Positions 39,817 to 56,686 of a stretch of 64,000 bases of DNA are shown here, piece by piece; the stretch's first letter is position 1; each line of letters opens with the position of its first letter. The notes beneath the pieces are model-generated. The model was not told the origin of the DNA. It worked only from the letters and a program-made list of their open reading frames with translations, and made no database searches. The position numbers and the translations under genes were made by a program. Location: positions 188,009 to 252,008 of the forward strand of contig JAEZJG010000022.1 of the NCBI GenBank assembly GCA_023415795.1, written 5' to 3'. Origin of the DNA: Bacillota bacterium (GTDB lineage Bacteria > Bacillota > Clostridia > Christensenellales > SZUA-584).

Positions 39817-41112
39817 TTACGTTTCAGGAATTACCTTCACAATGCTGTACATGCTGGAGAGAACCTCCCAGTTCTGCGGGAATGATAATCCCAGCAGCCA
39901 ATAACTGATGCCGCGCAGGTCGTATTCGTTGACCAGCAGCAGCTTGGCGCGTACGCTCCGCGCGTCCTCGAACCACACCTCGTGCTGAACGCCGTTGGTA
40001 TCGTAATACTTAAACGTGGGGGCTTGTGTCTGTTCGTTAAACTGTATTGCCGCGCCCTTCTCAGCTGCCAGCCGGATGGCCTGCTGCGGGTCCAACCGCC
40101 GTGCCCAACGCCCGCCCGGCATGTAGGGCAGTGTCCAGTCGTAGCCGTACAGCGGCATACCCATCATGATCTTGCGGCTGGGCATCACAGAGGCGGCGTA
40201 GCGTATCACGCTTTCCACCTGATCGATGGGGGCGACTGCGTACGGCGGCCCGCCCGACCAACCCCACTCGTAGGTCATAATGATGACGAAATCGACGATC
40301 TCTCCATGTGCCTTGTAATCGTGCGCCCCATGCCACGAGCCGGTCTGAAGGTCAGAATCCTTGGGCGCGAGCGCGGTGGATACCACATAATTTTGCTCAT
40401 GCAGCGCGGCGGTGATGCGGCGCAGGAAATCGTTGTAGAGCTGGCGGTTTTCAGGCGATATACGTTCAAAGTCAATATTGATTCCATAGTAACCCTTGGT
40501 ATTCATAATGCTCAGCACATTGGCGATCAGTTTATCCTGAAGCATTGTATCCTTCAATATGCTGTCTACCAATGCTGTGTCGAAGTTGCCGTTGGAGAAG
40601 TTGGTGATGACGAGCAGCGGAGCGATGCGAAATTCGCGCGCGGTACGCAGCATGGTATCATCGTTGATGGGTGTCAGACTTCCATCTGCCTTTACCTGGT
40701 AGCTGAACGGAGACAGGTATGTGAGGTCGTTGCCCACTTCGCGAATGGTCTGTGCCTCCTTGTCGGGTGTGGACGGTTCAATATAGCCGTTTACCTCGAT
40801 GTACCCGTAGTTGCGCGCGCGCACGGGGATTCGCAGCGTTGTGCCTGGTGCTAATGCCTCGGGATTGGTGATGCCGTTTAGTGCGACTATGTCGCTCACC
40901 GTGGTGCCATAGCGCCGCGCAATCGTCCATAGTGTATCTCCGGGCCGAACAGTATGTACCGTCTCGCCGGTGGGTATCACCAGCGCCTGCCCCACAACCA
41001 AATAGGGAATATCCGACAATCCGTTAGCGGCGTATATAGCGTCGGCGCTTGCGCCAAACCTTTGGGCAATGCTGTACAGTGAATCACCCGGCTGCACCAC
41101 ATATATGTCCAA
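39817..41112 (-). CDS. spore peptidoglycan hydrolase, two LysM domains + GH18 domain (SleL/YaaH-like)
   Basis: Two LysM repeats (…YVVQPGDSLYSIAQRFGAS…, …HTVRPGDTLWTIARRYGTT…) and the GH18 catalytic motif YGINIDFE. The start is uncertain (TTG 41112 after AAAGGAAGTGAG). Confidence 0.8.
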   Translation of the reverse strand: MDIYVVQPGDSLYSIAQRFGASADAIYAANGLSDIPYLVVGQALVIPTGETVHTVRPGDTLWTIARRYGTTVSDIVALNGITNPEALAPGTTLRIPVRARNYGYIEVNGYIEPSTPDKEAQTIREVGNDLTYLSPFSYQVKADGSLTPINDDTMLRTAREFRIAPLLVITNFSNGNFDTALVDSILKDTMLQDKLIANVLSIMNTKGYYGINIDFERISPENRQLYNDFLRRITAALHEQNYVVSTALAPKDSDLQTGSWHGAHDYKAHGEIVDFVIIMTYEWGWSGGPPYAVAPIDQVESVIRYAASVMPSRKIMMGMPLYGYDWTLPYMPGGRWARRLDPQQAIRLAAEKGAAIQFNEQTQAPTFKYYDTNGVQHEVWFEDARSVRAKLLLVNEYDLRGISYWLLGLSFPQNWEVLSSMYSIVKVIPET

Positions 41113-41318
41113 AAAACTCACTTCCTTTATTTTTATTTGAGCGGTTAACCGCTTGTATATTATATGGAAAGCAGTAAAGGCTGGTTCGTGCATCTGCACT
41201 TTCGTATAATTTTTGGCATAAAAGCTTTATCACTTTTTGAGGTGGCTCAATATACTATATTATGCCGTGCCGAAAAGCGGCGCTGCCGCCGACAGAATTA
41301 TAAAACGGAGTAGAGTCA

Positions 41319-41762
41319 ATGGAATATTCACCGAGAGAGCTTTTTGCGCGTATGATCAAGTGCGAAGCCGGTGGTGAGGGGTTAAGCGGAATGCAAGCCG
41401 TGGCCTCGACCATTATGAACCGGGTACATGTGTCATACGGAGAATACTTACGGACGGGGCAGGGGGATTTGCGCCGTGTGCTGACCCAACCGGGGCAATT
41501 CACCTGCTATATGTCAACGGTAGGCGGTGAGTTTAATCCGCAAACCGTATGGAGCAGCCCTCCTGAACAGCTGCATTATGACGTGGCAGATTGGGCGCTT
41601 GCCGGAAACGTGCATTCCGGCGCTGTGGAAACGCTATGGTACATGAATCCGTTCAGCACCAATTGCCCACCCTATTTTCCATACAACCGCTCGGGCGTTC
41701 AGTTCAACAGGGTCAATCAGCACTGCTTTTATCAGCCCACGGCCTTGTATGCGCAAACATAA
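41319..41762 (+). CDS. cell wall hydrolase of the SleB/CwlJ catalytic-domain family
   Basis: …LFARMIKCEAGGEGLSGMQAVASTIMNRV… and …QPGQFTCY… are hallmarks of the spore cortex-lytic Hydrolase_2 domain. At 147 aa it is CwlJ-sized. Confidence 0.8.
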   Translation: MEYSPRELFARMIKCEAGGEGLSGMQAVASTIMNRVHVSYGEYLRTGQGDLRRVLTQPGQFTCYMSTVGGEFNPQTVWSSPPEQLHYDVADWALAGNVHSGAVETLWYMNPFSTNCPPYFPYNRSGVQFNRVNQHCFYQPTALYAQT

Positions 41763-41789
41763 AATTTCCTTATGAAAGGGGGATACCAA

Positions 41790-42770
41790 ATGTTAATGAG
41801 CCAACCGTATAATAATACGGCCGGGCAGGCCGGATGGTCACAAAGCGCGGGTGCGCAGAAGATGAACCCGGCAAGAGAGATGAAAATGACGGGGGAGAGC
41901 GTAATGCCTTACTCGCGGTCAACACCGAACATATCGCAGGTTCCCAATATGTCGTCAATGCCCAATGTGACGACATCACCAATGACGGGAGTATCGCCAA
42001 TGTCTAACACAGGCGTGTCGCCAATGTCCAACATGGGCGTGTCACCGATGTCTAACACAGGCGTGTCGCCAATGTCCAACATGGGCGTATCACCGATGTC
42101 TAACACAGGCGTGTCACCCATGTCTAACACAGGCGTGTCACCGATGTCCAACATGGGCGTGTCACCGATGTCCAACATGGGCGTATCACCGATGTCCAAC
42201 ACGGGCGTGTCGCCCATGTCGAAGATGGGCGTATCACCGATGTCCAACACGGGCGTGTCGCCCATGTCGAAGATGGGCGTGTCACCGATGTTTAACACTG
42301 GTGTATCACCGATGACCAAGATGGGTGTATCGCCGATGAACTCGGATGTGTCGCCAATGACCAAGACGGGTGTATCGCCGATGAACACGGATGTATCGCC
42401 GATGACCAAGATGGGTGTATCGCCAATGAACACGGATGTATCGCCCGCCACCAAGAACGGTGGCTCCATGATGGGTGTTGCTGGAGCTGCTTCACCGGGC
42501 TTCGTAGCAAGGAATGGTGCAGTTTCACCGGTGGCAATGGAAACGCCTACGACAGTGGAAAGCCCGTATTATACCGCGGGTTTCTTAAGAAACTTTCTTG
42601 GCAAGAACATGCGCGTCGAATTCCTGATCGGTACGACGGGACCGTTGGTGGATAGAATCGGCGTGCTGGTGGAGGTAGGTGCCAGCTACATCGTACTGAG
42701 ACCCTATCTGACAGATGATCTTCTGATGTGCGATTTATACTCGATTAAGTTTGTCACGATCTATGGTTAA
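41790..42770 (+). CDS. GerQ-like spore coat protein with an expanded N-terminal octapeptide-repeat region
   Basis: The C-terminal ~80 aa (…YYTAGFLRNFLGKNMRVEFLIGT…GVLVEVGASYIVLRP…LLMCDLYSIKFVTIY) follows the GerQ (YwdL) C-terminal pattern. It lies immediately downstream of a CwlJ-like gene, as in cwlJ-gerQ operons of the B. cereus group. ATG 41790 follows AGGGGG. Confidence 0.55.
   Translation: MLMSQPYNNTAGQAGWSQSAGAQKMNPAREMKMTGESVMPYSRSTPNISQVPNMSSMPNVTTSPMTGVSPMSNTGVSPMSNMGVSPMSNTGVSPMSNMGVSPMSNTGVSPMSNTGVSPMSNMGVSPMSNMGVSPMSNTGVSPMSKMGVSPMSNTGVSPMSKMGVSPMFNTGVSPMTKMGVSPMNSDVSPMTKTGVSPMNTDVSPMTKMGVSPMNTDVSPATKNGGSMMGVAGAASPGFVARNGAVSPVAMETPTTVESPYYTAGFLRNFLGKNMRVEFLIGTTGPLVDRIGVLVEVGASYIVLRPYLTDDLLMCDLYSIKFVTIYG
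41985..42455 (+). repeat. in-frame tandem repeat, about 20 units of 24 nt (GVSPMSN[T/M]), degenerating to alternating 21/24-nt units at the 3' end
   Basis: Read directly from the sequence: ACAGGCGTGTCGCCAATGTCCAAC / ATGGGCGTGTCACCGATGTCTAAC and so on, with synonymous third-position variation between units. Confidence 0.95.
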
Positions 42771-42814: not shown

Positions 42815-42849
42815 AGGCACCGGGGAAAAATCCCTGTGCCTTTTGTTTT
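42815..42849 (+). terminator. intrinsic terminator after the gerQ-like gene
   Basis: AGGCACCGGGG-AAAAA-TCCCTGTGCCT hairpin followed by TTTGTTTTG. Confidence 0.6.
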
Positions 42850-42888: not shown

Positions 42889-45123
42889 TTACAACAGAGA
42901 AACAAGATCCTTGTGCAACTCGGACATTGCATCCTCAACGGACACGTTCTTTTCAAGTATGTGCATCATATGCTTGTAAATCAAGGACTCAATCTGAGTG
43001 ATGGGAACCAGCGATCCGTCCGATTTTTTCAAAGACCTTCGCTGGCGGTTACCGGGAAAGGATTTGAACAGCAAAGGGAGCCACGGATAGTGGTTGGCGA
43101 GCTCATCGTTTGTATAGACGTTCTTTAATGGCGATTGGCCGTCCAATATGGTAAAATATTTACTCATGTCTGAGTCGCACGTCCATTCAATAAATTCAAG
43201 CGCAGCAGATGGATCGGTGCTGGATGCGGGTATCGCAAGCCCCCAGCTTCCTAGAACAGAGTGATTGCCCGGAATGTTGGCGTAACCAACCTTGCCGATA
43301 ACGCTTGACTTGGTGGTGTTGTTGACATCAGCTATAAAAGAGGCAAAGCCGACAAGCATTGCGGTTTTACCCAGATAAAAATCTCTGACAGTATCCTCAA
43401 CGGTGTAAGTCAGCGTCTCGGGCGGAGCATATTTAAATGCTTCTACTAAACTGTTTACCCCTTTCTTAAACGGAGCTGATGTGACAAGCGGATTACCCTC
43501 GTCGTCAAACACTTTGGCGTTATAGGCCCAAACTCGTATAAGAAGCTCCGGCAGAAAAATAGCGTCGTTCCGCGTCGAGAAGGAGGTTCCGTAGTCCACT
43601 GGAGAGGAGGGGTTTATCGAGCGGGTGAAGAAGCTGCTGATGATGTTGAACTCAAACCAGGTTCGGGGGACACGCAGCTTGGTGCCGTATTTCTTCTCAA
43701 ACAGCTCGCAAAGCTTGTCATCCTCAAATAGATCGCGGCGGTAAACCAGCAGCTGAGGACCAAAAAGAAAAGGTGTGCCGTAGTACCTGTTGTTGACCAT
43801 GCCTATTTTCTCTAGAAGACCATCCAAAAAAACGCTCTTGTCGACGGCGTTGGATTCTATATGATGCGTTATATCCATTAGCAGCCGTTCGGAAACGAGC
43901 ATGTCCAGCCACGGATTGTCGTACATAATAACGTCGAAATTGCTGATATAATCTCTGTCGAGCAGCTTCGATAAAAGCGTTCCATGCTCGCAAAGCGTCA
44001 CATCAACGTCTACACCGGTTTTTCGGGTGAAATCGGCGTGTGTTCTGATAATGCCGTGGGCGTTGGGCGAGTCTAAAAAGAGAGCCCGCAGTTTTCTTTC
44101 CACCGGTTTGCGTGTGGTTACCGGAGCCTTGGAGGCTTCGAACAAATTCTTGCCAATGATTTTATCTTTGAGCAGTATCTGCTGCTTTTCAAACATCAGA
44201 GGGCTATCGATATTGCCAAGCAACAGCTTTGCTGCCTTAATACCCATATAATTGGCCGGTCGCATTGTTACAATGATATTGTTGTATTTAAGCACACTGG
44301 AGAGCGTTTCCTCCCCAATTGATACCATTACCATATCATCGTATAAGGAGATGCCCGCAAGGAAGGCCGCCTGCTCCAATCCGTTTGTTACCAGCCGTGA
44401 GGTTGAGATAACCGCCTGTGGCGAATAATCCTGAAATAACGATATACCTGTTCTAAAAGCCTCTTCCTTTGTCATGCTGATGTGATATATTAAATTCTTG
44501 TCGACGTTTATATCACGCGCTTTGAAAAAGTCGTTATAGGCAAGTGTATACTCTGCTTCGCAGGAAAAATGCTCGGGACCCGCTACTAATGCAATTTTCC
44601 TGTAGCCGTGATCGAATAATTGGGATAACAGGTATTGCATAGTCTCGTATTGGTTAAAGGAAACGAAGTTCGCATCCTCGGAAGTCACCTTCCTGTCGAT
44701 AAACAAGATTGGTGTTCCTGATACCCGGTCGTAGAATTCAGTGCCCTTTAAACACGACATGACAATAAGACCGTTTACGTTTTTCTTAAGCATGCTGTTG
44801 ACGACAGCAATTTCATTTTCCGCAACATCCTCTGTTAATGCCAGGTTAAGGTAATAGCCCGCCTTGCGAATCTCCGATTCTATTCCTTCTAAAAGGTAGG
44901 CGTAGTAGTGTTCTGCGGTGTTGGGTAATATGACACCAATTTCGCGATTGCTGTTCGTGCGAAGATTTCGTGCAAACTGATTGGGTTTATAGTTTAATTC
45001 TTCGATTGCGTCTCTGATTCGTTTTGCCGTTTCGGGAAGAACGCTTTTAGCGCCTGTCAAATAATTCGACACTGTTCCGACGGATATACCTGCAAGATTC
45101 GCAACATCCTTGATTGTACTCAT
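42889..45123 (-). CDS. three-module regulator: LacI-type HTH + LacI periplasmic-binding-fold sensor + C-terminal family-1 extracellular-solute-binding-protein-like domain
   Basis: MSTIKDVANLAGISVGTVSNYLTG… (LacI HTH), …IGVILPN… (PBP type I), and residues ~340-744 with SBP_bac_1 hallmarks (…FDVIMYDNPWLDMLV…, …YYGTPFLFGPQLLVYRRDLFED…, …PRTWFEF…, …GSWGLAIPASSTDPSAALEFIEW…). There is no signal peptide. Confidence 0.75.
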   Translation of the reverse strand: MSTIKDVANLAGISVGTVSNYLTGAKSVLPETAKRIRDAIEELNYKPNQFARNLRTNSNREIGVILPNTAEHYYAYLLEGIESEIRKAGYYLNLALTEDVAENEIAVVNSMLKKNVNGLIVMSCLKGTEFYDRVSGTPILFIDRKVTSEDANFVSFNQYETMQYLLSQLFDHGYRKIALVAGPEHFSCEAEYTLAYNDFFKARDINVDKNLIYHISMTKEEAFRTGISLFQDYSPQAVISTSRLVTNGLEQAAFLAGISLYDDMVMVSIGEETLSSVLKYNNIIVTMRPANYMGIKAAKLLLGNIDSPLMFEKQQILLKDKIIGKNLFEASKAPVTTRKPVERKLRALFLDSPNAHGIIRTHADFTRKTGVDVDVTLCEHGTLLSKLLDRDYISNFDVIMYDNPWLDMLVSERLLMDITHHIESNAVDKSVFLDGLLEKIGMVNNRYYGTPFLFGPQLLVYRRDLFEDDKLCELFEKKYGTKLRVPRTWFEFNIISSFFTRSINPSSPVDYGTSFSTRNDAIFLPELLIRVWAYNAKVFDDEGNPLVTSAPFKKGVNSLVEAFKYAPPETLTYTVEDTVRDFYLGKTAMLVGFASFIADVNNTTKSSVIGKVGYANIPGNHSVLGSWGLAIPASSTDPSAALEFIEWTCDSDMSKYFTILDGQSPLKNVYTNDELANHYPWLPLLFKSFPGNRQRRSLKKSDGSLVPITQIESLIYKHMMHILEKNVSVEDAMSELHKDLVSLL

Positions 45124-45187
45124 TCTTTGCCTTCCTTATAAGGATATTTTTATTATAAATTAGTGTTCACAGAAAAGCAATACGAAA

Positions 45188-45201
45188 TTGAAACGATTCA
45201 C
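45188..45201. promoter_or_regulatory. candidate LacI/GalR-family operator 1
   Basis: TTGAAACGATTCAC has a core AAACGATTC like the GalR-type operator GTGTAAACGATTCCAC. It lies in the divergent promoter region between the regulator and the ABC operon. Confidence 0.35.
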
Positions 45202-45286
45202 TAAATTATATTAATAATAAATTATATTAATAATTTAGCGAATAACAACATATAAAAGTATATTCTCGCAAATACATTTTTCGTGG

Positions 45287-45298
45287 TAAAACGATTCA
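45287..45298. promoter_or_regulatory. candidate LacI/GalR-family operator 2
   Basis: TAAAACGATTCA has the same AAACGATTCA core, about 100 bp from site 1. Confidence 0.3.
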
Positions 45299-45444
45299 AT
45301 AAAAGTTTTAATAATTCAATTGACTTTGTCAAAGAAATATTTATAATAGCAATTGAGTTAAACAATTTACATGTCACCATTCCCACTAAAAAATGAACAG
45401 TAAAAACAGACAGATTACGCCTCAATGATGAAAGGAATTATGTT

Positions 45445-46935
45445 GTGTCTGAAGTATTGCTTGAAATGATCGGAATTCAAAAGTACTTCCCCGGTGTACA
45501 CGCTTTGGATAACGCATCACTTTGCGTTAAAAAGGGGGAAGTCCATGCTCTTGTGGGCGAAAATGGAGCGGGCAAATCCACACTGATGAAGATATTAACC
45601 GGAATTCACAAAAAGGATGAAGGTGTTATCCGATTCCGCGGTCAGGAGATCGAGGCCAGTGATCCGCGTCATTCGCAGCAGTTGGGCATCGGAATAATCC
45701 ATCAGGAACTCAACCTTATGCCTCATCTGACGGTTGCGCAAAACATTTTTATCGGCAAAGAGCCTAAACGGGGAGTTTTCATTGATCAGAATTCGGAAAA
45801 CAAACAAGCTTGGGAAATGCTCAAGGCATTGAATCTGGAAATCGATCCAACCCTCCCGGCTGGCTATCTGACAGTTGCAAAGCAGCAGATGGTGGAGATT
45901 GCAAAGGCGTTGTCGTACGACAGCGAGCTTCTTATTATGGATGAGCCGACCGCTGCATTGACCGAAAGCGAGATTCAAGAGCTGTTCAAGGTGATCCGCG
46001 ATCTGCGTGATAAGGGCCATGGCATCGTCTATATCTCTCATCGGCTGGATGAGCTTGCGCAGATAACTGACCGTGTTACAGTCATGCGCGACGGTCAATA
46101 CGTGGGCACGAGGGATACCAAGGACGTTACAAAAGAAGATATCATCAGTATGATGGTGGGGCGCACGATCTATGAGAAGCCCAAGTCTGCCAGCACGGTT
46201 GAGCAAAACGCCCCTGTTGTCCTCAAAGTTGAACACCTTATTGGTCACAACATCAAGGACGTTTCGTTTGAGCTGCGCAAGGGAGAGGTTCTCGGGTTCG
46301 CCGGATTGATGGGCGCGGGGCGTACCGAAACGATGCGCGCTTTGTTTGGCGCAGACCCTGTCGTAAGCGGCAGTGTCTACATTAAAGGGGAGCAGGTGCA
46401 TATCAAATCTCCCAGCGATGCCATCGCTAACGGCTTGTGTTACTTATCTGAAGACAGAAAAGAGTTTGGTCTGGCGGTGGGCTTAAGCGTCAGAGACAAT
46501 TGCGTGATGGCAAGCCTGAAGGATTTCATGAACGGACCATTTACGGATGATAAGAAGATTGATGCGGTTGCGCGCGAATATATAAAGAAGATTGACATTA
46601 AGACGCCGTCGCCCAAACAGCTTGTCAAAAACCTCTCCGGCGGAAACCAACAGAAGATTGTTATTGCAAAATGGCTGGTGAGAAACAGCGATATTCTAAT
46701 ATTTGATGAGCCGACGCGCGGCATAGATGTGGGCGCAAAGCAGGAGATATACAAACTGATGAACGCGCTTGCGGCTGAAGGTAAGTCCATCATCATGATC
46801 TCGTCCGAGATGCCAGAATTGCTGCGTATGAGCGACAGGCTCATCGTTATGTGCGAGGGTGTCATTACCGGCGAACTGGACATTGCTGAAGTGACACAGG
46901 AAAAAATAATGACATTAGCGACAATGAATATGTGA
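45445..46935 (+). CDS. sugar ABC transporter ATP-binding protein (CUT2 family, duplicated ATPase, RbsA/MglA-like)
   Basis: GTG start. Walker A GENGAGKST, signature and Walker B in both halves (…LSGGNQQKIVIAKWL…ILIFDEPTRGID…). Confidence 0.9.
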   Translation: MSEVLLEMIGIQKYFPGVHALDNASLCVKKGEVHALVGENGAGKSTLMKILTGIHKKDEGVIRFRGQEIEASDPRHSQQLGIGIIHQELNLMPHLTVAQNIFIGKEPKRGVFIDQNSENKQAWEMLKALNLEIDPTLPAGYLTVAKQQMVEIAKALSYDSELLIMDEPTAALTESEIQELFKVIRDLRDKGHGIVYISHRLDELAQITDRVTVMRDGQYVGTRDTKDVTKEDIISMMVGRTIYEKPKSASTVEQNAPVVLKVEHLIGHNIKDVSFELRKGEVLGFAGLMGAGRTETMRALFGADPVVSGSVYIKGEQVHIKSPSDAIANGLCYLSEDRKEFGLAVGLSVRDNCVMASLKDFMNGPFTDDKKIDAVAREYIKKIDIKTPSPKQLVKNLSGGNQQKIVIAKWLVRNSDILIFDEPTRGIDVGAKQEIYKLMNALAAEGKSIIMISSEMPELLRMSDRLIVMCEGVITGELDIAEVTQEKIMTLATMNM

Positions 46936-46945
46936 GGTTATTAGA

Positions 46946-47917
46946 ATGCATACGAAAAGGTTTGATTTAACAAAGTTGTTGGCTCCGGCAGTGTTGGTGA
47001 TACTGTACATATTCTTTTCTCTGTTTGGAACAAACTTCTTCTCGCTTGATTATTTAGTCAATATTCTGGACGGCTCGTATTACATCGGCTTCATGGCAAT
47101 CGGTGTCACGTTTGTTATCATCACCGGCGGTATCGATCTGTCTCTAGGAACAACCATGATGTGCGCGGCGCTGCTGGGCGGCGCGGCTTACAACACGCTG
47201 CACTGGCCGATGGGCTTATGCCTGCTGCTGGTGGTGGTTACTGCCACGGCGATGGGTTTCTTGAACGGTATTATGGTCGCGTTCTTCAAGCTGCCTCCCT
47301 TCATCGCCACTTTGGGTATGATGATGATGGGCATGGGCTTCGGTGCGATCGTGACAAAGGTGCAGACCATGCGCTATCCCACATTCGGAACGCCGGAGGG
47401 TTGGTTCAAGAACATATTTTATAAGACTTCTGACGGTTTTCCGCTGGGCGTTCTGTGGTTAGCCGGGTTTATCGTCATCGCATTCTTGCTCCTGAATAAA
47501 ACGAGATTCGGCCGTTATACTTTCGCTATTGGTTCCAACCGTGAAGCGGCCCGCCTCTCCGGCATCAAAATCCGTCCGTGGCTGACTGCTGTATACACGT
47601 TCTGCGGCTTCTGCAGCGGTCTTGCCGGTGTGATGTATGCTGCGGTATACACCTCCATTATCCCTTCCACAGGCAATGGACAAGAGCTTCTGGGAATCGC
47701 GGGCGTTGTTATCGGCGGGACGAGCATGAGCGGCGGCACGGGTACGTTGGTCGGAACCATCATTGGTGTATTCATCATGAGCGTGCTTAAGCAGGGATTG
47801 ATGTCGATGGGGCTGCAAAGCCACTGGCAGACGTTCTTCACCGGCGTTGTTGTCATCGCTGCGGTGCTGATGGATCAGTATCGAATCAGCAGAGGCAATC
47901 AGGTAAGAAAGGCTTAA
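46946..47917 (+). CDS. sugar ABC transporter permease (RbsC/BPD_transp_2 family)
   Basis: 323 aa with about 9-10 TM helices. …GGIDLSLGT… and …FAIGSNREAARLSGI… are typical. Confidence 0.9.
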   Translation: MHTKRFDLTKLLAPAVLVILYIFFSLFGTNFFSLDYLVNILDGSYYIGFMAIGVTFVIITGGIDLSLGTTMMCAALLGGAAYNTLHWPMGLCLLLVVVTATAMGFLNGIMVAFFKLPPFIATLGMMMMGMGFGAIVTKVQTMRYPTFGTPEGWFKNIFYKTSDGFPLGVLWLAGFIVIAFLLLNKTRFGRYTFAIGSNREAARLSGIKIRPWLTAVYTFCGFCSGLAGVMYAAVYTSIIPSTGNGQELLGIAGVVIGGTSMSGGTGTLVGTIIGVFIMSVLKQGLMSMGLQSHWQTFFTGVVVIAAVLMDQYRISRGNQVRKA

Positions 47918-47970
47918 TAAGTAATCCTCGGGAATTTCCCGTTGGAAAATAAAGAGGAGGATACCAAAAC

Positions 47971-49116
47971 ATGAAAAAGGCATTATTAATGCTGCTGGCA
48001 TTGGCAATGGTGTGGGCGTTGGCAGCATGCGGCGCTCCCCAGACTGCTCCTAGCAGCGCTCCGGCTGATACCGAAGAAGTGACCGCGACAGAGGCTCCGG
48101 CAACAGAAGCTCCTGCTGCAGGCAAGCCCTACATCGCTGTTATTTCTAAGGGCTTCCAGCACAAGTTCTGGCAGACCGTTCAGGCTGGCGCACAGGCAGC
48201 TGCTGAAAAGTATGGCGTTGACATGACGTTCGACGGCCCTCCGTCCGAATCTGATATCAGCATTCAGGTTGATATGGTGAACGCGGCTATGGCGAAGAAC
48301 CCTGCGGCTCTGTGCCTCGCGGCTCTCGATACCGAATCCCTCAACGAGCAGCTCACCGCTTGCTTGGACAAGGGTATTCCGGTAGTCGGTTTTGACTCGG
48401 GCGTTCCGAATGCTCCCGAAGGCTCAATCGTTTCCACGGCTTCTACGGACAACACTGCTGCCGGCGCTCTTGCTGCTGAGCAGATGTACGAAAAAGTGAA
48501 GGCTGCTGTTGCGGCGGCAACAAAAGATGCTCCCGTTGTTATCAGCGTTATCAGCCAGGATGCAACCTCTGCTTCCATCACTGGTCGTACGGATGGCTTC
48601 GTAGCGAAGATGTTTGAGCTGTGCGACGCCGCTCAGTCGGGTCTTGTGGCTGTGACCGGCCATGACAAGTGGACCAAAGCTTCCACCTCCGGCGATGTTG
48701 CGGTTGAAATCCTCGTTTCCATCGCGGCTTCCACGAGCGTAACGGACTGCCAGACGGCTGCGCAGGCTGTTCTTCAGAGAGGACCTGTTGGCGTGTTCTG
48801 CACAAACTCCGGTTCTGTTGACGGCATGCTGGCGGCGACCACCGACGGTTCCGATCTTGACCGTGCAAGCGGCAAGTACAAAGACCTTATCGCTGTTGGT
48901 TTTGACTCGGGCGCGACGCTGCTGAATGCCATCAAGAACAAATGGTTTGACGGCGCTGTGACTCAGGATCCGTACATGATCGGTTACTATGCGATCGAAT
49001 TGGCTGTGAAGACCCTGAACGGCGAATCTGTGGATGCCATTGTTGACACTGGCTGCAAGTACTACACGGCTGACAACATGGAAGATCCGGACATCGCGGC
49101 TCTGCTTTACGAATAA
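47971..49116 (+). CDS. sugar ABC transporter substrate-binding lipoprotein (Peripla_BP_4/RbsB-like)
   Basis: Lipobox LALAMVWALAAC, an Ala/Thr/Glu-rich linker, then …YIAVISKGFQHKFWQTV…FDGP… (type I PBP). Confidence 0.85.
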   Translation: MKKALLMLLALAMVWALAACGAPQTAPSSAPADTEEVTATEAPATEAPAAGKPYIAVISKGFQHKFWQTVQAGAQAAAEKYGVDMTFDGPPSESDISIQVDMVNAAMAKNPAALCLAALDTESLNEQLTACLDKGIPVVGFDSGVPNAPEGSIVSTASTDNTAAGALAAEQMYEKVKAAVAAATKDAPVVISVISQDATSASITGRTDGFVAKMFELCDAAQSGLVAVTGHDKWTKASTSGDVAVEILVSIAASTSVTDCQTAAQAVLQRGPVGVFCTNSGSVDGMLAATTDGSDLDRASGKYKDLIAVGFDSGATLLNAIKNKWFDGAVTQDPYMIGYYAIELAVKTLNGESVDAIVDTGCKYYTADNMEDPDIAALLYE

Positions 49117-49213
49117 GCCTATAAGAAACCAATTGATAGAGGGGGCAGTCTTTTAAGGCTGCCCCCAAAAATATAACTGCAATTATATGTTTAAGAAAAT
49201 GGGGTAATGAAAC

Positions 49214-49660
49214 ATGCTGTTGGGAGTACCGAAATTATTGTCGCCGGAGATTATTTCAACACTTTGTGAAATGGGTCATAGCGATGTCATCGTGATCGGG
49301 GATGCAAACTTTCCGGGCAAGCGCTTTGCGGAAGAAGGCAACTGTAAGTTTTTGAGGGCAGACGGTATCTCGGGTACGGCGCTGTTGGAAGCTATACTCT
49401 CCGTTATTCCGTGCGACACATACTGCGAGCATCCCGTCAAACTGATGCAGACCATGGAATGTGATCGGCATCTGGACATACCTATATGGGAAGAGTACAA
49501 AAAGATAGTGGCGAAGCATGATGAACGCGCAGATGCGGCTATCGGTTTTTTAGATAGATTTGACTTCTATGATGAAGCAAAGAAGTCCTACTGCATCATA
49601 CAATCGGGAGAAGAAGCAATTTACGCAAACATCATGATTCAAAAGGGAGTTATCAAATAG
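49214..49660 (+). CDS. fucU: RbsD/FucU family sugar mutarotase (FucU-like)
   Basis: MLLGVPKLLSPEIISTLCEMGHSDVIVIGDANFPG… is typical of L-fucose mutarotase/RbsD-FucU proteins. The substrate is not inferable from sequence. Confidence 0.75.
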   Translation: MLLGVPKLLSPEIISTLCEMGHSDVIVIGDANFPGKRFAEEGNCKFLRADGISGTALLEAILSVIPCDTYCEHPVKLMQTMECDRHLDIPIWEEYKKIVAKHDERADAAIGFLDRFDFYDEAKKSYCIIQSGEEAIYANIMIQKGVIK

Positions 49661-49661
49661 C

Positions 49662-51173
49662 ATGGCAAAGGATTTGCTGCTCGGCATAGATATAGGCACA
49701 AGCGGATGCAAAATAGCGTTGTTCTCGCCGGACGGTACGGTTATCTGTACTGTGGTGGAAGATTATCCGGTATACTACCCAGCTCCGGGCTTTGTGGAGC
49801 AGGAGCCGGACGATTGGTGGCACGCTGTATGTCGAGGTACCAAAAGAATGATTGCGGAGTATGGCGTGGACACTGCCCAAATCGCAGGTATTGGTGTCGA
49901 CGGTCAGAGCTGGGCTGCGATTGCGGTGGATCGGGACGGAAAGGCACTTACACGCAACCCGATTTGGATGGATACCCGGTCTGAAGCAATCTGTAAAGAG
50001 TTGAATGAAACAGTGGGTGAGGACGCAATATTCGAAGTGTCGGGCAACCCGCTGAAAGCACAATATACGACCGGCAAAATCATATGGTATCAGCGCAGCT
50101 TGCCGGAGGTTTACAAAAAGATCGATAAGGTTTTACAATCGAACAGCTTCATCGTATACCGCTTAACAGGTGTGTTGAGTCAGGATATGTCTCAAGGCTA
50201 TGGGCTGCACTGTTTTGACATGAGAAATGGCTGCTGGGATGATGCAATGGCAGCGGCACTGGGGATAAGCCGTCATCTGCTGCCCGACATCGCGCAATGC
50301 CACGAGGTGGTGGGTACGGTGACGACCGCGGCTGCGCAGAGTATGGGGATTTTGGCGGGTACACCGGTGGTGGCGGGCGGTTTGGATGCTGCCTGCGGGA
50401 CACTGGGAGCCGGTGTATTTCTTCCAGGGCAAACGCAGGAGCAGGGCGGTCAAGCTGGAGGCATGAGCATCTGCATGGATCAATACTGTGCGGATCCTAG
50501 ATTGATATTGAGCTATCACGTCGCGCCGAACCGGTGGCTGCTTCAGGGTGGAACAACGGGCGGCGGCGGTGTGCTGCGTTGGTTCCATGAACAGTTTGGT
50601 TATGAAGAGATACAAAGAGCGAAGGCAACGGGAGATTCCTCGTTTACGCTGCTCACAAATCTCGCGCAGACAGTATCGGCCGGCAGCGAGGGGCTGACAT
50701 TCCTGCCGTATATGGCGGGAGAGCGCTCGCCCATTTGGGATGAAAAAGCCAAAGGCGTGTTCTACGGCTTGGATTATTCGAAGACTAAGGCACATATGGT
50801 TCGGGCGGCAATGGAGGGCGCTGTATACGCTCTGCGCCATAACATTGAAGTGGCGGCTGGAGCAGGTGCCGAGGTGGGTACCATGCGCGCGATGGGTGGC
50901 GCGGCGAACTCACACTTCTGGACGCAGATGAAGGCGGACATAACGGGGAAGCCTATTGAAGTTCCCGCATCCGATGTGGCCACGACGCTGGGCGCGGCAC
51001 TGCTGGCTGGTGTCGGCTTGGGAATATACAGCGGTTTTGAGGATGCTGTGAATCAAACGGTGAAGGTAAAGCGTCGGCATGAGCCGAGCACACAGGACAA
51101 GACGGCCTATGATCGCGGTTATGAGACGTATTTGGAGCTCTATGCCGCGTTAAAAATTTTAATGCATAAGTAA
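49662..51173 (+). CDS. FGGY-family carbohydrate kinase (xylulokinase-like)
   Basis: …LLGIDIGTSGCKIALF…, …EQEPDDWW… and …GGGAANSHFWTQMKADITG… are FGGY N- and C-domain motifs. Confidence 0.85.
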   Translation: MAKDLLLGIDIGTSGCKIALFSPDGTVICTVVEDYPVYYPAPGFVEQEPDDWWHAVCRGTKRMIAEYGVDTAQIAGIGVDGQSWAAIAVDRDGKALTRNPIWMDTRSEAICKELNETVGEDAIFEVSGNPLKAQYTTGKIIWYQRSLPEVYKKIDKVLQSNSFIVYRLTGVLSQDMSQGYGLHCFDMRNGCWDDAMAAALGISRHLLPDIAQCHEVVGTVTTAAAQSMGILAGTPVVAGGLDAACGTLGAGVFLPGQTQEQGGQAGGMSICMDQYCADPRLILSYHVAPNRWLLQGGTTGGGGVLRWFHEQFGYEEIQRAKATGDSSFTLLTNLAQTVSAGSEGLTFLPYMAGERSPIWDEKAKGVFYGLDYSKTKAHMVRAAMEGAVYALRHNIEVAAGAGAEVGTMRAMGGAANSHFWTQMKADITGKPIEVPASDVATTLGAALLAGVGLGIYSGFEDAVNQTVKVKRRHEPSTQDKTAYDRGYETYLELYAALKILMHK

Positions 51174-51181
51174 AGGAAAAC

Positions 51182-52231
51182 ATGATGAAGGCAGCAGTTG
51201 TAGTAGCAAACGAAGATGTTCAGTATTTGGAGATCGAAGAGCCTCAGGTTACCGAAGGCACTGTTAAGGTTAAGGTGGCGATGTCGGGCATCTGCGGTTC
51301 GGATGTACCCAGAGTTCTCCATAACGGCGTACACTTCTACCCGATTGTGCTGGGGCATGAGTTCTCGGGCCAAATTGTGGAAGTCGGCGAAAAAGTGACA
51401 AGTGTCAAGGTAGGGGATAGAGTTGCGGGAGTGCCGCTGGTGCCATGTATGGTCTGCAGTGACTGCCAGCAGGGTAACTATGCGCTTTGCAAGCATTACA
51501 GCTTTATCGGCTCAAGACGAAACGGCAGCAACGCAGATTATGTTGTGGTGCCGGAACGCAACGTCGTGAAATTTGATAAGTCTGTCAGCTATGAGCAAGG
51601 CGCTATGTTTGAACCTTCGACAGTGGCTCTGCATGGGGTTCTGCAGAACGACTATCGGGGCGGCGGTACAGTGGCCATACTCGGTGCCGGCACAATCGGC
51701 ATATTCACATTTCAATGGGCGAAGCTGCTGGGCGCAACCAAGGTTATCGTATTTGATATCAGTGATGAGCGTTTGGCACTGGCTGAAAAGCTGGGGGCGG
51801 ACGGCATCATCAATACACTCAAAGAAAACTTTATGGACGAAGCACTGGAGGCAAGCGGCGGCAAGGGTTATGACTATGTATTTGAAACTGCCGGTGCCAC
51901 AGCCACAATGAAGATGGCCTTCAAACTGGCGGGGAGCAAAGCAAACGTCTGCTTTATCGGAACGCCGCATACCGAGCTTTGCTTTACGCCTGCCGAATGG
52001 GAAAACATGAATCGGAAGGAATTTAAGCTGACAGGTTCTTGGATGAGCTATAGCGCGCCGTTTCCGGGCAAGGAATGGACAATGACTGCAGAATACTATG
52101 CTTCGGGCAAACTCAAATTTGACGAAGGGCTGATTGGAGAACGCATATCGATGTCTGAGGCGCAGGAAGCATTCCAAAAGTTTAAGACACCGGGCGCGGT
52201 AAAAGGAAAGATTTTGCTGGTAAACAACTAA
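51182..52231 (+). CDS. zinc-dependent polyol/alcohol dehydrogenase (MDR family; sorbitol / galactitol-1-phosphate dehydrogenase-like)
   Basis: …SGICGSDVPR…, …GHEFSGQIVEVG…, the structural-zinc cysteines C..C..C…C (PCMVCSDCQQGNYALC) and the Rossmann ILGAGTIG. Confidence 0.85.
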   Translation: MMKAAVVVANEDVQYLEIEEPQVTEGTVKVKVAMSGICGSDVPRVLHNGVHFYPIVLGHEFSGQIVEVGEKVTSVKVGDRVAGVPLVPCMVCSDCQQGNYALCKHYSFIGSRRNGSNADYVVVPERNVVKFDKSVSYEQGAMFEPSTVALHGVLQNDYRGGGTVAILGAGTIGIFTFQWAKLLGATKVIVFDISDERLALAEKLGADGIINTLKENFMDEALEASGGKGYDYVFETAGATATMKMAFKLAGSKANVCFIGTPHTELCFTPAEWENMNRKEFKLTGSWMSYSAPFPGKEWTMTAEYYASGKLKFDEGLIGERISMSEAQEAFQKFKTPGAVKGKILLVNN

Positions 52232-52252
52232 TATAAAACGGAGGGAAGCAAA

Positions 52253-53263
52253 ATGGAATTTATTGATCCGACAAGGGTTCCGCAAAGAACGCTGTATGAC
52301 GGAGGCAAAATGCCTTGCATCGGCATGGGCACATTTGGCTCAGATAGATTTACACCGGATCAGGTGTCGGCGGCTGTCGCGGGTGCCATCAAGGTGGGCT
52401 ATCGCATGTTCGACTGCGCCGCCGTATACGGCAACGAAGATATGATCGGCGATGTGTTTCAGGATGCGTTCGATAAAGGCATTGTGAAGCGTGAAGAGCT
52501 GTTTATCACCACCAAGGTGTGGAACAACATGCACGGCAGAGGAGATGTTCTCATCTCCTGCGCGAAAAGCCTGAAGGATCTGCATCTGGACTATATCGAC
52601 GCGTTCTTCATCCACTGGCCGTTTGCAAACTATCATGCGCCGGGCTGCGACGGTGATGCGCGTAACCCGGACTCCAAGCCGTTCTCGGTTGACCGCTTTA
52701 TGGCTACCTGGCGGCAGTGTGAACGTTTGGTAGACATGGGTCTCGTGAAATACATCGGTATGTCGAGCATGACCATCCCCAAACTGGAGGCCGTGCTGCC
52801 GCTGTGCCGCATCAAACCGGCTGCCATTGAGATGGAGCTGCACCCCAGCTTCCAGCAGCCTGAGCTTTACGACTACATCGTCTCAAAAGGCATCGCGCCT
52901 ATCGGCTTTTGTCCGATTGGGTCGCCCACTCGCCCCGACCGCGACAAGACGGAGAACGACGTGGTGGATATTCAGATGCCCGAGGTTGTGGAAATCGCCA
53001 AGGCGCATGGCGTACACCCGGCTGTCATCTGCCTGAAATGGGCGGTGCAGCGCGGACAGACGCCGATACCCTTCTCGGTGTACGAGAACGAATACATAAG
53101 CAACCTGCGCTGCGTGACGGAAGACCCGCTCACGGATGCCGAGATGGAATCTATCAAATCGGCCGATAAGAACTGCCGCCTCATCAAGGGACAGGTGTTC
53201 CTGTGGGAAGGCGCAAAGAGCTGGGAAGATCTCTGGGATTTGGACGGTACAATCACAAAATGA
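52253..53263 (+). CDS. aldo/keto reductase
   Basis: …GMGTFGSD…, …FDCAAVYGNE…, …LFITTKVWN… and …YIDAFFIHWP… are AKR catalytic tetrad contexts. Confidence 0.85.
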   Translation: MEFIDPTRVPQRTLYDGGKMPCIGMGTFGSDRFTPDQVSAAVAGAIKVGYRMFDCAAVYGNEDMIGDVFQDAFDKGIVKREELFITTKVWNNMHGRGDVLISCAKSLKDLHLDYIDAFFIHWPFANYHAPGCDGDARNPDSKPFSVDRFMATWRQCERLVDMGLVKYIGMSSMTIPKLEAVLPLCRIKPAAIEMELHPSFQQPELYDYIVSKGIAPIGFCPIGSPTRPDRDKTENDVVDIQMPEVVEIAKAHGVHPAVICLKWAVQRGQTPIPFSVYENEYISNLRCVTEDPLTDAEMESIKSADKNCRLIKGQVFLWEGAKSWEDLWDLDGTITK

Positions 53264-54531
53264 TGACAGAAAAGTATTTCAACAAGCTTATTAGTGAGCA
53301 AAAGGGTGGCAGCGATAAGGCAATATGCTCCATATGCAGCGCCAACGAATTTGTGTTGGAGGCTGCAATGGAGGACGGTCGTGACAATGGACACATGGTT
53401 CTGATTGAGGCGACTGCTAATCAGGTGAACCAGTTCGGCGGTTATACCGGCATGAAGCCTCAGGATTTTATGGCGTTTGTAAGCCGTGTTGCGGACAAGG
53501 TTGGTTTGAGCAAGGATCAGCTGATACTGGGTGGAGATCACCTAGGACCGCTAACGTGGAAAGGTGAGGACGAATCCTCTGCCATGGAAAAGGCAGAGGA
53601 ACTGATCCGACAGTATGTGAACGCGGGATTCAGCAAGATACACCTTGACACCAGCATGCGTCTTGCGAACGATTCTGTCACGGAACGGCTGTCAGATGAA
53701 ACGATCTCAGGTCGTGCGGCACGGCTGTGTGCTGCTGCGGAAGGTGTCGGCGGAGTTAAGCCGGTCTATGTTATCGGCAGTGAGGTGCCCGTACCGGGCG
53801 GCGCAACGGAGAACGAAGACTCAATAGCGGTAACATCGCCGCAGGACTTGCAAGCAACGCTGGATGCGTTTAAAACTGCGTTTGCGAAAGCCGGTTTATC
53901 GGACGCATGGAAACGTGTGATCGCGGTGGTGGTGCAGCCGGGCGTTGAGTTTGCAGACAACACCATTATCAAGTACGACGCCGAAAAGGCGCAGGAGCTA
54001 ATCGCATACGCACAAAGTTTAGATGGAGTCGTGCTGGAAGGGCATTCCACCGATTATCAGCCCAAGGCCGCCCTTGATATGATGCGGCGCGACGGCATAG
54101 CAATCTTGAAGGTGGGCCCTGCACTGACGCTGGCGTTGAGGGAAGCATTGTTCGCGCTTGAGGATATGGAGCGCATATTGTATCCGTTCTCGCCGAAGGG
54201 CGGATATTCAAATTTCCGCGAAGTGCTTGAATTCAAGCTGATGAGCAATGATAAGTATTGGAAAAGCTACTACCATGGCAGCGATCAGGATATCGCTTAT
54301 GCCAGAAAATTTAGCTTGTCCGACAGGTGCCGTTATTATCTGGAGGATGAAGACATCAAGGCATCAATTGAAAGGCTGAGAGTCAATATCAATGCGGTCA
54401 GTGTGCCGTTTGGGCTGATATCGCAGTACTTCCCTGAGCTGAAGGAGAAGGTGCTTACAACGCAGTCGCCTGTAACAGCTGAGATGATGATTAAAGAACG
54501 TATCAAGTGCGTTCTCATGACTTACAGGTAA
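53260..54531 (+). CDS. GatZ/KbaZ-family protein (class II tagatose-bisphosphate aldolase accessory subunit / tagatose-6-phosphate 4-epimerase-like)
   Basis: Start at ATG 53260, overlapping the AKR stop (ATGA). …ICSICSANEFVLEAAMEDG…VLIEATANQVNQFGGYTGM… is typical of GatZ/KbaZ. No GatY/KbaY-type catalytic subunit is present in the locus. Confidence 0.8.
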   Translation: MMTEKYFNKLISEQKGGSDKAICSICSANEFVLEAAMEDGRDNGHMVLIEATANQVNQFGGYTGMKPQDFMAFVSRVADKVGLSKDQLILGGDHLGPLTWKGEDESSAMEKAEELIRQYVNAGFSKIHLDTSMRLANDSVTERLSDETISGRAARLCAAAEGVGGVKPVYVIGSEVPVPGGATENEDSIAVTSPQDLQATLDAFKTAFAKAGLSDAWKRVIAVVVQPGVEFADNTIIKYDAEKAQELIAYAQSLDGVVLEGHSTDYQPKAALDMMRRDGIAILKVGPALTLALREALFALEDMERILYPFSPKGGYSNFREVLEFKLMSNDKYWKSYYHGSDQDIAYARKFSLSDRCRYYLEDEDIKASIERLRVNINAVSVPFGLISQYFPELKEKVLTTQSPVTAEMMIKERIKCVLMTYR

Positions 54532-54572
54532 ATTAGTCGACAACACAACACTCTTCCTATTTTGATTCGGGG

Positions 54573-55648: not shown

Positions 55649-56686
55649 ATGGATACAGCAAAGCTGCTGGATTGGTATAGAACAAACAAAAGGGATCTGC
55701 CGTGGCGAAAAACCAGCGACGTATACGCGGTGCTGGTGTCTGAGATGATGCTGCAGCAAACAACGGTGGATACGGTGCTGGGATATTACGATCGTTTCCT
55801 GACGCGCTTTCCGCATGTGCAATCGCTGGCGGCGGCAAACGAGGAGGACGTTCTGGATGCATGGAAGGGGCTGGGCTACTACTCGCGGGCGCGTAACCTG
55901 CATCGGCTGGCAAAACAGGTGGCGGAAGCAGGCGGCGCTTTTCCCGCAACGCTGGAGGGGTGGCGCAAGCTACCCGGCGTGGGGCCTTACATCGCTGGAG
56001 CGGTGACCAGCATTGCGCTGGGGCTGCCGAATGCGGCGGTGGACGGCAACGTGCTACGCGTGTTCGCGCGGGTGGATGGCATAGGGGACGACATCATGCT
56101 GCCGCAGACAAAGAAGCGGGTAGAGGAACGCGTACAGGCGCTGATACCGCATGACGCAACGAGCGATTTTACGCAAGCACTGATGGAACTGGGGGCACTG
56201 GTATGCCGACCCTCCTCGCCGGACTGTGACAGCTGCCCGGTGGCTGCGAACTGTATGGCTCGTGAGAGGGGCTTGGTGGATGTGCTGCCTGTGAAGAAGC
56301 CCAAGGAGAAGCAGCAGGCAGAGGCGATGTGGGTGGCGGTGGTGATGACGCCGGAAGCGGTATTGCTGGAGCACAGGCGAGAGGATACGCTGTTGGCACG
56401 CATGTGGGGCTTGCCCATCGTTGTGCAGCAAGGGGACAGGTCTGCCGAAGAACTGCTGTCAGAGAAGTACGGTGTCATTCTGTCGGACGGTATTCCGGCG
56501 GGGCATGCGACACATGTGTTCACGCATCGGCGTTGGGAAATGGATATCGTACGGTTTGAACCGGAGAAGGAATTCCCGGTAAGCGGTGCATTGGAATGGG
56601 TGAGCTGGGAACAATTTGAGAGAAAGCCGGTACCCACGGCATTTATGAAGGTGCTGCGGGCGGCGCGAAAGGAGGATGGGTTATGA
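55649..56686 (+). CDS. mutY: A/G-specific adenine DNA glycosylase
   Basis: …[22 protein letters not shown]…, HhH-GPD (…[12 protein letters not shown]…), the 4Fe-4S cluster loop C..C..C…C ([17 protein letters not shown]) and a NUDIX-like C-terminal domain. Confidence 0.9.

Follow-up and report, generated by a model that had tools for sequence, protein, structure and literature searches.

A probable clostridial equivalent of the cwlJ-gerQ operon, with a lineage-specific repeat expansion in the GerQ-like partner

The 64,000-nucleotide (nt) stretch of DNA analysed here, which is called the window throughout, comes from a Bacillota bacterium of the Clostridia (assembly GCA_023415795.1, contig JAEZJG010000022.1) and carries at 41319-42770 a pair of adjacent genes, a cwlJ-like gene and a GerQ-like gene, which probably corresponds in Clostridia to the cwlJ-gerQ (cwlJ1-ywdL) operon of Bacillus. 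The downstream protein very probably corresponds to GerQ both in descent and in function, having diverged beyond the reach of the family models, and on present evidence it should not be filed as a member of the Pfam family PF09671 (Spore_GerQ). New here are a GerQ-like partner of CwlJ for which no family model exists and the lineage-specific expansion of repeats in its N-terminal part. An earlier reading of the same DNA, made from the letters alone and called the original prediction below, had given the coordinates of the two open reading frames (ORFs) and the spacing between them, and both proved to be right. The parts of the pair are as follows; lengths of proteins are in amino acids (aa), and compared loci and proteins carry L and P numbers, respectively.

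41319..41762, plus strand: cwlJ-like gene for a 147-aa single-domain Hydrolase_2 cell-wall hydrolase, with its stop codon at 41760-41762 (ORF list)
41777..41782, plus strand: ribosome-binding site AGGGGG, 7 nt 5' of the ATG at 41790 (from the sequence)
41790..42770, plus strand: GerQ-like gene, 326 aa, coding sequence including the stop codon (ORF list and translation)
41790..41987, plus strand: N-terminal leader of 66 aa with the clade-conserved motif KMTGESVMPYSR, kept in L001, L004, L006, L007, L008, L011 and L088/L089
41988..42458, plus strand: tandem array of 20 units, 14 of 24 nt and then alternating units of 21 and 24 nt (codon-aligned segmentation)
42459..42530, plus strand: Gly/Ala/Ser/Pro-rich linker from the array to the folded domain (translation; predicted local distance difference test score, pLDDT, below 50 in both models)
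42531..42767, plus strand: C-terminal 79 aa that were modelled, of which residues 7-77 are the predicted Sm-like, GerQ-like core (AlphaFold2, AF2)

The 147-aa product of the upstream gene matches the Pfam family Hydrolase_2 (PF07486) with an E-value of 7.6e-17 and 62.2 bits, the cutoff being 27, and the match spans residues 19-138 and profile positions 1-100 of 100. It has one domain and lacks the peptidoglycan-binding domain found at the N-terminus of SleB; the SleB equivalog model TIGR02869 gave 25.8 bits, far under its cutoff of 236.5. Genuine PF09671 gerQ genes are found directly 3' of a Hydrolase_2 gene of 140-142 aa in Paenibacillus sp. (L086, CP162129.1) and in a Bacillales contig (L087), and the window enzyme is 28% identical to these gerQ-linked CwlJ proteins over residues 7-142 (E 1e-10 and 6e-11). 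The motifs AR..EA.GEG..GM, NR, PG.F, LW...P..CP and HCFY.PT are common to all of them. Because of this identity and these motifs the label CwlJ-like is justified, and the product of 41319-41762 can be described from its sequence as a CwlJ-type enzyme, as had been supposed originally for the gene 27 nt upstream of the GerQ-like gene. The protein resembles the CwlJ of Bacillus in its length class, in having a single Hydrolase_2 domain and in being paired with a GerQ-type gene, whereas the identity is only 28% and a 9-residue insertion at about residues 66-75 is present relative to the CwlJ of Bacillales. A phmmer and profile search of the PDB sequences gave no solved relative of the enzyme.

The C-terminal domain of the downstream protein carries the comparison with GerQ. 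For the C-terminal 79 aa, AF2 with an alignment of 42 sequences gave a model with a pLDDT of 86.4 and a predicted template modelling (TM) score of 0.73, and this model consists of two short helices (H7-10 and H12-22) and then five strands; the family alignment A1 has 19 invariant columns. Among 350,542 PDB chains the best Foldseek match to this model was 8zra_A, "GerQ filaments from Bacillus amyloliquefaciens", with an E-value of 1.8e-3, TM scores of 0.76/0.76, a root-mean-square deviation (rmsd) of 1.5 Å, 68 columns and 16% identity. The next matches were MnxE/F (9bxa_E, TM 0.67/0.61) and Hfq (TM ~0.62). The core of GerQ, residues 91-169, is built of two helices and five strands and assembles into nonameric bowls by beta-sheet completion, the N-terminus being flexible and outside the bowl (PMC11405398). 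The order of helices and strands in the model is the same as in this published core.

The likeness to GerQ/YwdL (PF09671; 8zra) extends to the whole design of the protein and its gene: the gene lies directly 3' of a Hydrolase_2 (cwlJ) gene of ~140 aa, a low-complexity Pro/Gly/Met-rich N-terminus is followed by a C-terminal core of ~75-80 aa, and the predicted core superposes on the subunit of the GerQ filament with the LR...GK and G..x..G...I(I/V) positions aligned. The N-termini of true GerQ proteins have a median length of 43 aa, are composed of 19% P, 15% Q, 11% G and 8% M and contain few charged residues; those of the clostridial family have a median of 80 aa, with 15% P and 9% each of A, Q, G and M, and are also charge-poor. 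The differences are that the identity is ~16%, that PF09671 and NCBIfam miss the protein and hhalign stays below significance, that the window family occurs in uncultured Clostridia whereas GerQ occurs in Bacillales, and that the window N-terminus is 258 aa long and contains a Met/Ser/Pro array in place of a Gln-rich stretch. In addition, the window protein is without the Lys2, Lys4 and Lys5 cross-link sites.

The pairing with a cwlJ-like gene is conserved in the family. Among species-representative genomes the domain was found in 132 stretches from ~130 genomes (some with two copies), all of which are uncultured Clostridia metagenome-assembled genomes (MAGs). In the DNA of 85 loci and the window, the domain gene lies at most 400 nt 3' of a cwlJ-like gene in 77 of the 88 copies, usually with a gap of 20-30 nt. 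The exceptions are L002 and L010 (contig edges), L028 (an N gap), L015 (an ORF in which no ATG start was found), L033, the distal gene of the L054 tandem pair, and the second paralogues in L042-L045, L043 and L050. The order of cwlJ and then its partner is identical in these Clostridia, in the Paenibacillus locus L086 and in the Bacillales contig L087, and the cwlJ-ywdL operon of B. cereus is bicistronic (PMC3161080). In the window, the cwlJ-like stop codon and the ATG at 41790 are 27 nt apart and the terminator scan found no coding-strand terminator between the two genes, the sole other terminator-like match being on the minus strand within the GerQ-like gene; the gap and the lack of a terminator therefore imply co-transcription. 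A second in-frame ATG for the GerQ-like gene is present at 41772. Since it is missing in the L001 orthologue, whose ORF starts with MLISQPY, 41790 is the likely start.

Searching with the C-terminal domain gave 470 relatives, all "hypothetical" and without a Pfam domain, and the named ones among them are Christensenellales, Clostridia or Bacillota MAGs. An exhaustive profile search, for which the best 150 matches were listed, gave 1,226 clusters at 50% identity (E<=1e-3), and a word-indexed search with a divergent profile gave 3,122 clusters at 90% identity, all unannotated; the clusters of 10 divergent members had no informative names. No GerQ homologue had been identified in Clostridia (PMC3161080), and a literature search found no later report of GerQ in this class. 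Some genomes carry second, non-cwlJ-linked copies of the domain with a different N-terminus, some of these with a TGESVMP-like motif, and in L054 and L065 two tandem copies follow one cwlJ-like gene. Two copies of the GerQ-like gene, with cwlJ-like and glycoside hydrolase family 18 (GH18) neighbours, were also seen in L035 and L045, which come from JBLNCA01, "Burkholderiales bacterium MAG137"; this bin is probably mislabelled or contaminated. Genuine GerQ sequences are deposited as Xanthomonas citri, Vibrio vulnificus, Enterobacter cloacae and Micrococcus (P0277, P0291, P0329, P0348), and these four are almost certainly due to Bacillus contamination of the assemblies.

The most conspicuous part of the GerQ-like gene is the tandem array, which cannot be a chance feature. 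About 20 head-to-tail copies of GVSPMSN(T/M) had been described originally, and the codon-aligned segmentation bears this out with exactly 20 units at 41988-42458. The first 14 units are of the GVSPMSN(T/M) type with 8 aa each, and the last six are GVSPMNS, DVSPMTKT, GVSPMNT, DVSPMTKM, GVSPMNT and DVSPATKN, that is, the drift towards alternating, Lys-bearing units of 7 and 8 residues at the 3' end is also real. Tandem Repeats Finder reported a 24-nt period at 41985-42428 (18.8 copies, 78% matches) and a 48-nt period at 41987-42338 (7.3 copies, 87% matches), and because of the higher match of the latter the 16-aa di-unit GVSPMSNT-GVSPMSNM is the better-conserved unit. Over its 157 aa the array contains 27 Met, 33 Ser, 20 Ser-Pro dipeptides and 6 Lys, the last being six of the ten lysines of the protein. 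The full-length AF2 model, made with no alignment, predicted no secondary structure in residues 1-260. A beta-solenoid of 16-aa di-units was considered and rejected, as the same model, in which no alignment was used, has no regular array structure.

The units differ mainly at synonymous third positions, as had been noted originally. In the 14 canonical units the variable sites are distributed 1:2:7 over codon positions 1:2:3, and the pairwise proportions of synonymous (pS) and nonsynonymous (pN) differences are 0.50 and 0.076, respectively, which gives a pN/pS of 0.15, or 0.09 without the T/M codon. The peptide of the array is thus constrained, because the differences between units are mostly synonymous. 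On the other hand, units 9-10 are an identical 48-mer with units 11-12, unit 2 equals unit 4, unit 7 equals unit 8, and the longest exact repeat inside the array is 56 nt, so duplication is ongoing. The view that the repeat is old and not a recent slippage product therefore holds in one part, for the motif is constrained and conserved across species, and fails in the other, for the exact 48-nt and 56-nt repeats mark continuing duplication. The array is old at the level of the motif and young at the level of the copies.

Arrays of the GVSPMSN type are confined to one narrow clade, in which the orthologues L001, L004, L006-L008 and L088/L089 have the leader and the C-terminal domain in common with the window. 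Their lengths and units are as follows.

Window: 326 aa, 20 units
L001: 430 aa, ~30 units, also a 120-nt higher-order period
L003: 366 aa, ~22 units
L007: 335 aa
L008: 367 aa
L004/L009: 303 aa, degenerate repeats
L006: 245 aa
L088: 272 aa, 13-aa unit TGVSPMSNAPMTG, 6 copies
L089: 233 aa, 13-aa unit TGVSPMSNAPMTG, 3 copies

The N-termini of other clades are short and without repeats (~30 aa in gut MAGs) or carry different Met/Pro-rich repeats. In L016, L017, L030 and L031 the repeat GMQxPPMSxGRM (~11 aa) occupies the same N-terminal position, as do MPSQG/MPSQQ repeats in P0103 and the 13-aa unit in L088/L089; the tail appears to have been expanded by repeats recurrently and independently. The expectation that the copy number would be variable agrees with the differences among relatives. 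L001 and L003 (~30 and 22 units) differ by gaps of 48 and 144 nt with 100% identical flanks, and between L088 and L089 (6 and 3 units) there is a single gap of 117 nt, the 1,565 aligned nt being free of mismatches; these differences reflect either copy-number variation in the population or the collapse of repeats by the assembler. In the collections, an exact protein look-up and an exact DNA tag in metagenome contigs gave no other assembly of the window's species. The nearest genomes, L006 and L007, belong to other species, because their flanking DNA is only ~82% identical. A comparable case is BclA of the exosporium of the Bacillus cereus group, with collagen-like GXX repeats of variable length. 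The window protein would resemble BclA-type proteins in belonging to the outer layers of the spore and in shifting in repeat copy number among close strains, the terminal domains being constant, but the unit of BclA is a collagen triplet and not an 8-aa Met/Ser/Pro unit, BclA ends in a C1q-like trimer and not in a predicted Sm-like ring former, and it is the window protein that has cwlJ as its genomic partner.

Several observations weigh against the assignment to GerQ and its operon, among them the sequence tests. The C-terminal pattern had been said originally to match the conserved domain of GerQ, and the lack of a GerQ-family hit had been named as what would refute this; the search with hidden Markov models gave no match to PF09671 (Spore_GerQ) or NCBIfam for the whole protein or for its C-terminal 97 or 70 aa at E<=10, and the supposed pattern match is not demonstrable by sequence (hhalign P=0.04-0.4). 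Pfam and NCBIfam found nothing relevant in the N-terminal leader either, and 1 of 41 divergent family members touched PF09671, with E=0.07. Phmmer and the A1 profile retrieved no solved relative of the domain from the PDB sequences, 8zra included. For the comparison of profiles, the deposited 8zra sequence led to 120 genuine GerQ proteins, which were aligned (A3). A shallow alignment of the family gave P=0.4 over 10 columns against GerQ, 260 against 120 domains gave P=0.054 over 52 columns, and 50 divergent domains gave P=0.041 over 64 columns. The coverage rose with the depth and divergence of the alignments but the significance did not, and the hhalign probabilities of 0.15-1.3% are not significant. 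Furthermore, the Foldseek E-value is marginal, small Sm-like barrels recur in unrelated proteins, and the docking of CwlJ in the GerQ bowl is predicted, not shown, even in Bacillus (PMC11405398). The window protein starts with MLMSQPYNN, has its first Lys at residue 24 and has none at residues 2-5, and the transglutaminase Tgl is known from two species only in Clostridia (PMC3533761). As to the tail, the low confidence of the full-length model is weak evidence of disorder because the modelling was done without an alignment, and the differences in copy number were seen between metagenome assemblies, most likely of short reads, in which collapse may have occurred.

A rival reading is that an unrelated small barrel of the Sm-like/SH3-like kind makes up the C-terminal domain and has come to resemble GerQ in shape by convergence. 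The protein would then be a different partner of CwlJ, an inhibitor or a chaperone as YpeB is for SleB, or would merely be co-transcribed with it. Every test of GerQ membership at the sequence level fails, as this reading would have it, and the barrels of Hfq, MnxE/F, Spindlin and ribosomal proteins also match the model at TM 0.5-0.67. The ring formers of the Sm/Hfq type, including MnxE and MnxF of the spore Mn-oxidase complex of Bacillus sp. PL-12 (9bxa), have an N-terminal helix and a small five-strand barrel as well, assemble into rings and are the second- and third-best structural matches to the window model, and MnxE/F also scaffold an enzyme of the outer layers of the spore. However, their TM scores of 0.61-0.67 are lower than that of GerQ, and they have no common gene neighbourhood and, in the case of the window, no RNA-binding context. 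Convergence is unlikely, since GerQ is the single best structural match with a clearly higher TM score and a lower rmsd, and since the identical order of cwlJ and its partner in Bacillales and Clostridia, together with the two-part architecture common to both, would be hard to reach by convergence. Moreover, the register of the hhalign alignments is consistent over the whole domain (52-64 columns), YxxGxLRxxIGK being placed on SYIENILRLNRGK, G.L..VGASYI on G.IEAAGRDHI and IKFVT on LDYIT, so that the conserved LR...GK and G.(I/L)...G...I(I/V)(L/I) positions of both families are paired.

Two further readings concern the array. One is that the array or its length is an artefact of assembly, the 20-copy structure not being real as such. 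Assemblies with identical flanks disagree in copy number, the contig L002 ends within the array, and exact repeats of up to 56 nt occur within it; nevertheless, at least 9 assemblies made independently in different projects have arrays of the GVSPMSN type, in every case in frame and flanked by the leader and the domain, and a collapsed or chimeric assembly would not yield aperiodic synonymous variants and a structured 3' drift in an open frame. An artefact is therefore very unlikely, and within this question only the exact number of units is uncertain. The other reading is that the true gene across the repeat is on the opposite strand, as gene callers have annotated it in relatives.

41909..42469, minus strand: spurious 186-aa antisense ORF, GDTPVLDIGDTP..., in a frame left open by the repeat

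This minus-strand ORF exists because one antisense frame is free of stop codons across the array, and minus-strand genes of 104-357 aa, with GDTP(M/V)(F/L)DI repeats, were called over the arrays of L001 (5007-6080), L003 (34-813) and L004 (4932-5246). On the other side, the variable sites fall at the third positions of the plus frame, which in every relative is unbroken from a ribosome-binding site and a conserved leader to the conserved C-terminal domain, and the antisense ORF stops where the repeat stops. The third-position variation and an open frame that runs on into the conserved parts at both termini make the plus strand the coding one; a real antisense gene is extremely improbable and was rejected on this evidence. 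The miscalling also matters for annotation. In L001 the true 430-aa gene is called as a C-terminal stub of 118 aa and an antisense "protein" of 357 aa, and likewise in L003 and L004, the stubs of the miscalled genes being 118-160 aa long. The database lengths of the closest relatives, 77-180 aa, are underestimates because callers split the gene in this way, and the public databases thus hold fictitious proteins, wrong lengths and wrong family statistics for the array-bearing clade.

If the pair is the equivalent of cwlJ-gerQ, its function can be outlined by analogy with GerQ of Bacillus (PMC11405398, PMC3161080). The operon would be expressed in the mother cell during sporulation, and the C-terminal Sm-like domains would join by beta-sheet completion into rings, which are nonamers in GerQ. 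In the coat such rings would hold CwlJ in place, and calcium dipicolinate released at germination would trigger lysis of the cortex. The N-terminal region would be a flexible tail projecting from the ring, which in this lineage has probably grown by unequal recombination or slippage of the 24/48-nt unit to the present ~157 aa of GVSPMSN(T/M) repeats, with the peptide motif under purifying selection and the number of units changing fast. Most likely, the tail would serve to embed the ring in the matrix of the coat, as a disordered anchor or spacer, and the distal Lys-bearing units are possible cross-linking points. As for the chemistry of such cross-linking, the description of the Gln-rich stretch as the transglutaminase substrate in the original prediction was imprecise, the sites cross-linked by Tgl in B. 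subtilis GerQ being Lys2, Lys4 and Lys5 (PMC11405398). These lysines are also missing in YwdL of B. cereus (PMC3161080) and so do not define the whole GerQ family; since Tgl is rare in Clostridia and the window protein has no Lys2, Lys4 or Lys5, the Tgl cross-linking of Bacillus is doubtful here and may not apply.

The other features around the pair are as follows.

41226..41259, plus strand: promoter-like element TTTATCACTTTT-N10-CAATATACTATA, 5' of the cwlJ-like gene, kept across loci
42815..42849, plus strand: intrinsic-terminator-like hairpin AGGCACCGGGG-loop-CCCTGTGCCT, followed by TTTTGTTTT (extended stem from the sequence)
39817..41199, minus strand: LysM-LysM-GH18 protein (YaaH/SleL-type architecture), divergent neighbour (Pfam LysM twice and Glyco_hydro_18)

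Upstream regions were extracted for 36 loci, and in most of these an element of the form TTTATCAnTTTT-N(10-14)-CAATATACTAT lies equally far 5' of the cwlJ-like start codon; it may be a promoter for a sporulation sigma factor of the mother cell; a sigma-70 scanner also marks TTATCA-18-TATACT at 41227-41256. On the other side of the pair, 3' of the GerQ-like gene, the scanner marks the inner stem of the hairpin at 42821-42836 with a T-rich tail. The LysM-LysM-GH18 gene is beside the cwlJ-like gene in L001, L004 and L005 as well, and in 41 of 87 locus rows overall. Its mechanical ORF is 460 aa long, and because the orthologues are 429-433 aa and start with (M/V)SFLDIYVVQ, the true start is probably a GTG near 41118. 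Between the GerQ-like gene and a block of polysaccharide deacetylase, MutY and MsrAB genes the window has ~11.7 kb (42889-54561), which includes a 744-aa fusion of a LacI helix-turn-helix, a periplasmic-binding domain and SBP_bac_1, and ORFs that resemble a sugar ABC-transporter cluster. In L004 and L008 the same block is directly 3' of the GerQ-like gene, and the segment of the window appears to be an insertion relative to these relatives. A family-2 glycosyltransferase gene lies between the GerQ-like and the deacetylase genes in the species with the longest array only (L001 6625-7881, L002 1118-2374), and the Ser/Thr-rich repeat might be glycosylated. In addition, a fused MsrA-MsrB gene (PMSR and SelR domains) is found two to three genes 3' of the GerQ-like gene (window 56683-57618, L001 10032-10964, L004 7853-7965), which may be a coincidence or a hint of Met-oxidation chemistry.

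A more adventurous and quite unlikely idea is that the Met-rich array is a functional module, a thioether "brush" around the docked CwlJ with nine tails per ring and ~27 Met in each. The MxxM and Mx4M motifs and the 20 Ser-Pro sites per tail may belong to such a brush. It could serve as a sacrificial sink for oxidants that is repaired by the downstream MsrA-MsrB fusion, or it could instead bind copper as Cu(I), or carry heavy O-modification, a glycosyltransferase gene being present 3' of the longest array (L001). In that case, the length of the array would tune the permeability of the coat, the resistance to oxidation or the rate of germination, and the gene would be a contingency locus for heterogeneity of germination in anaerobic spore formers.

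Many Clostridia encode CwlJ-type enzymes, and according to the B. cereus study no GerQ homologue had been identified there (PMC3161080), which leaves a gap in the clostridial germination apparatus. A large family which has no Pfam or NCBIfam model and whose best structural match is GerQ would fill this gap. Because this family of predicted GerQ-like fold stands behind cwlJ-like genes, the positioning of CwlJ-type hydrolases in clostridial spores becomes testable, and the repeat-bearing clade would be an added example of a protein of the germination apparatus with a fast-changing tail.

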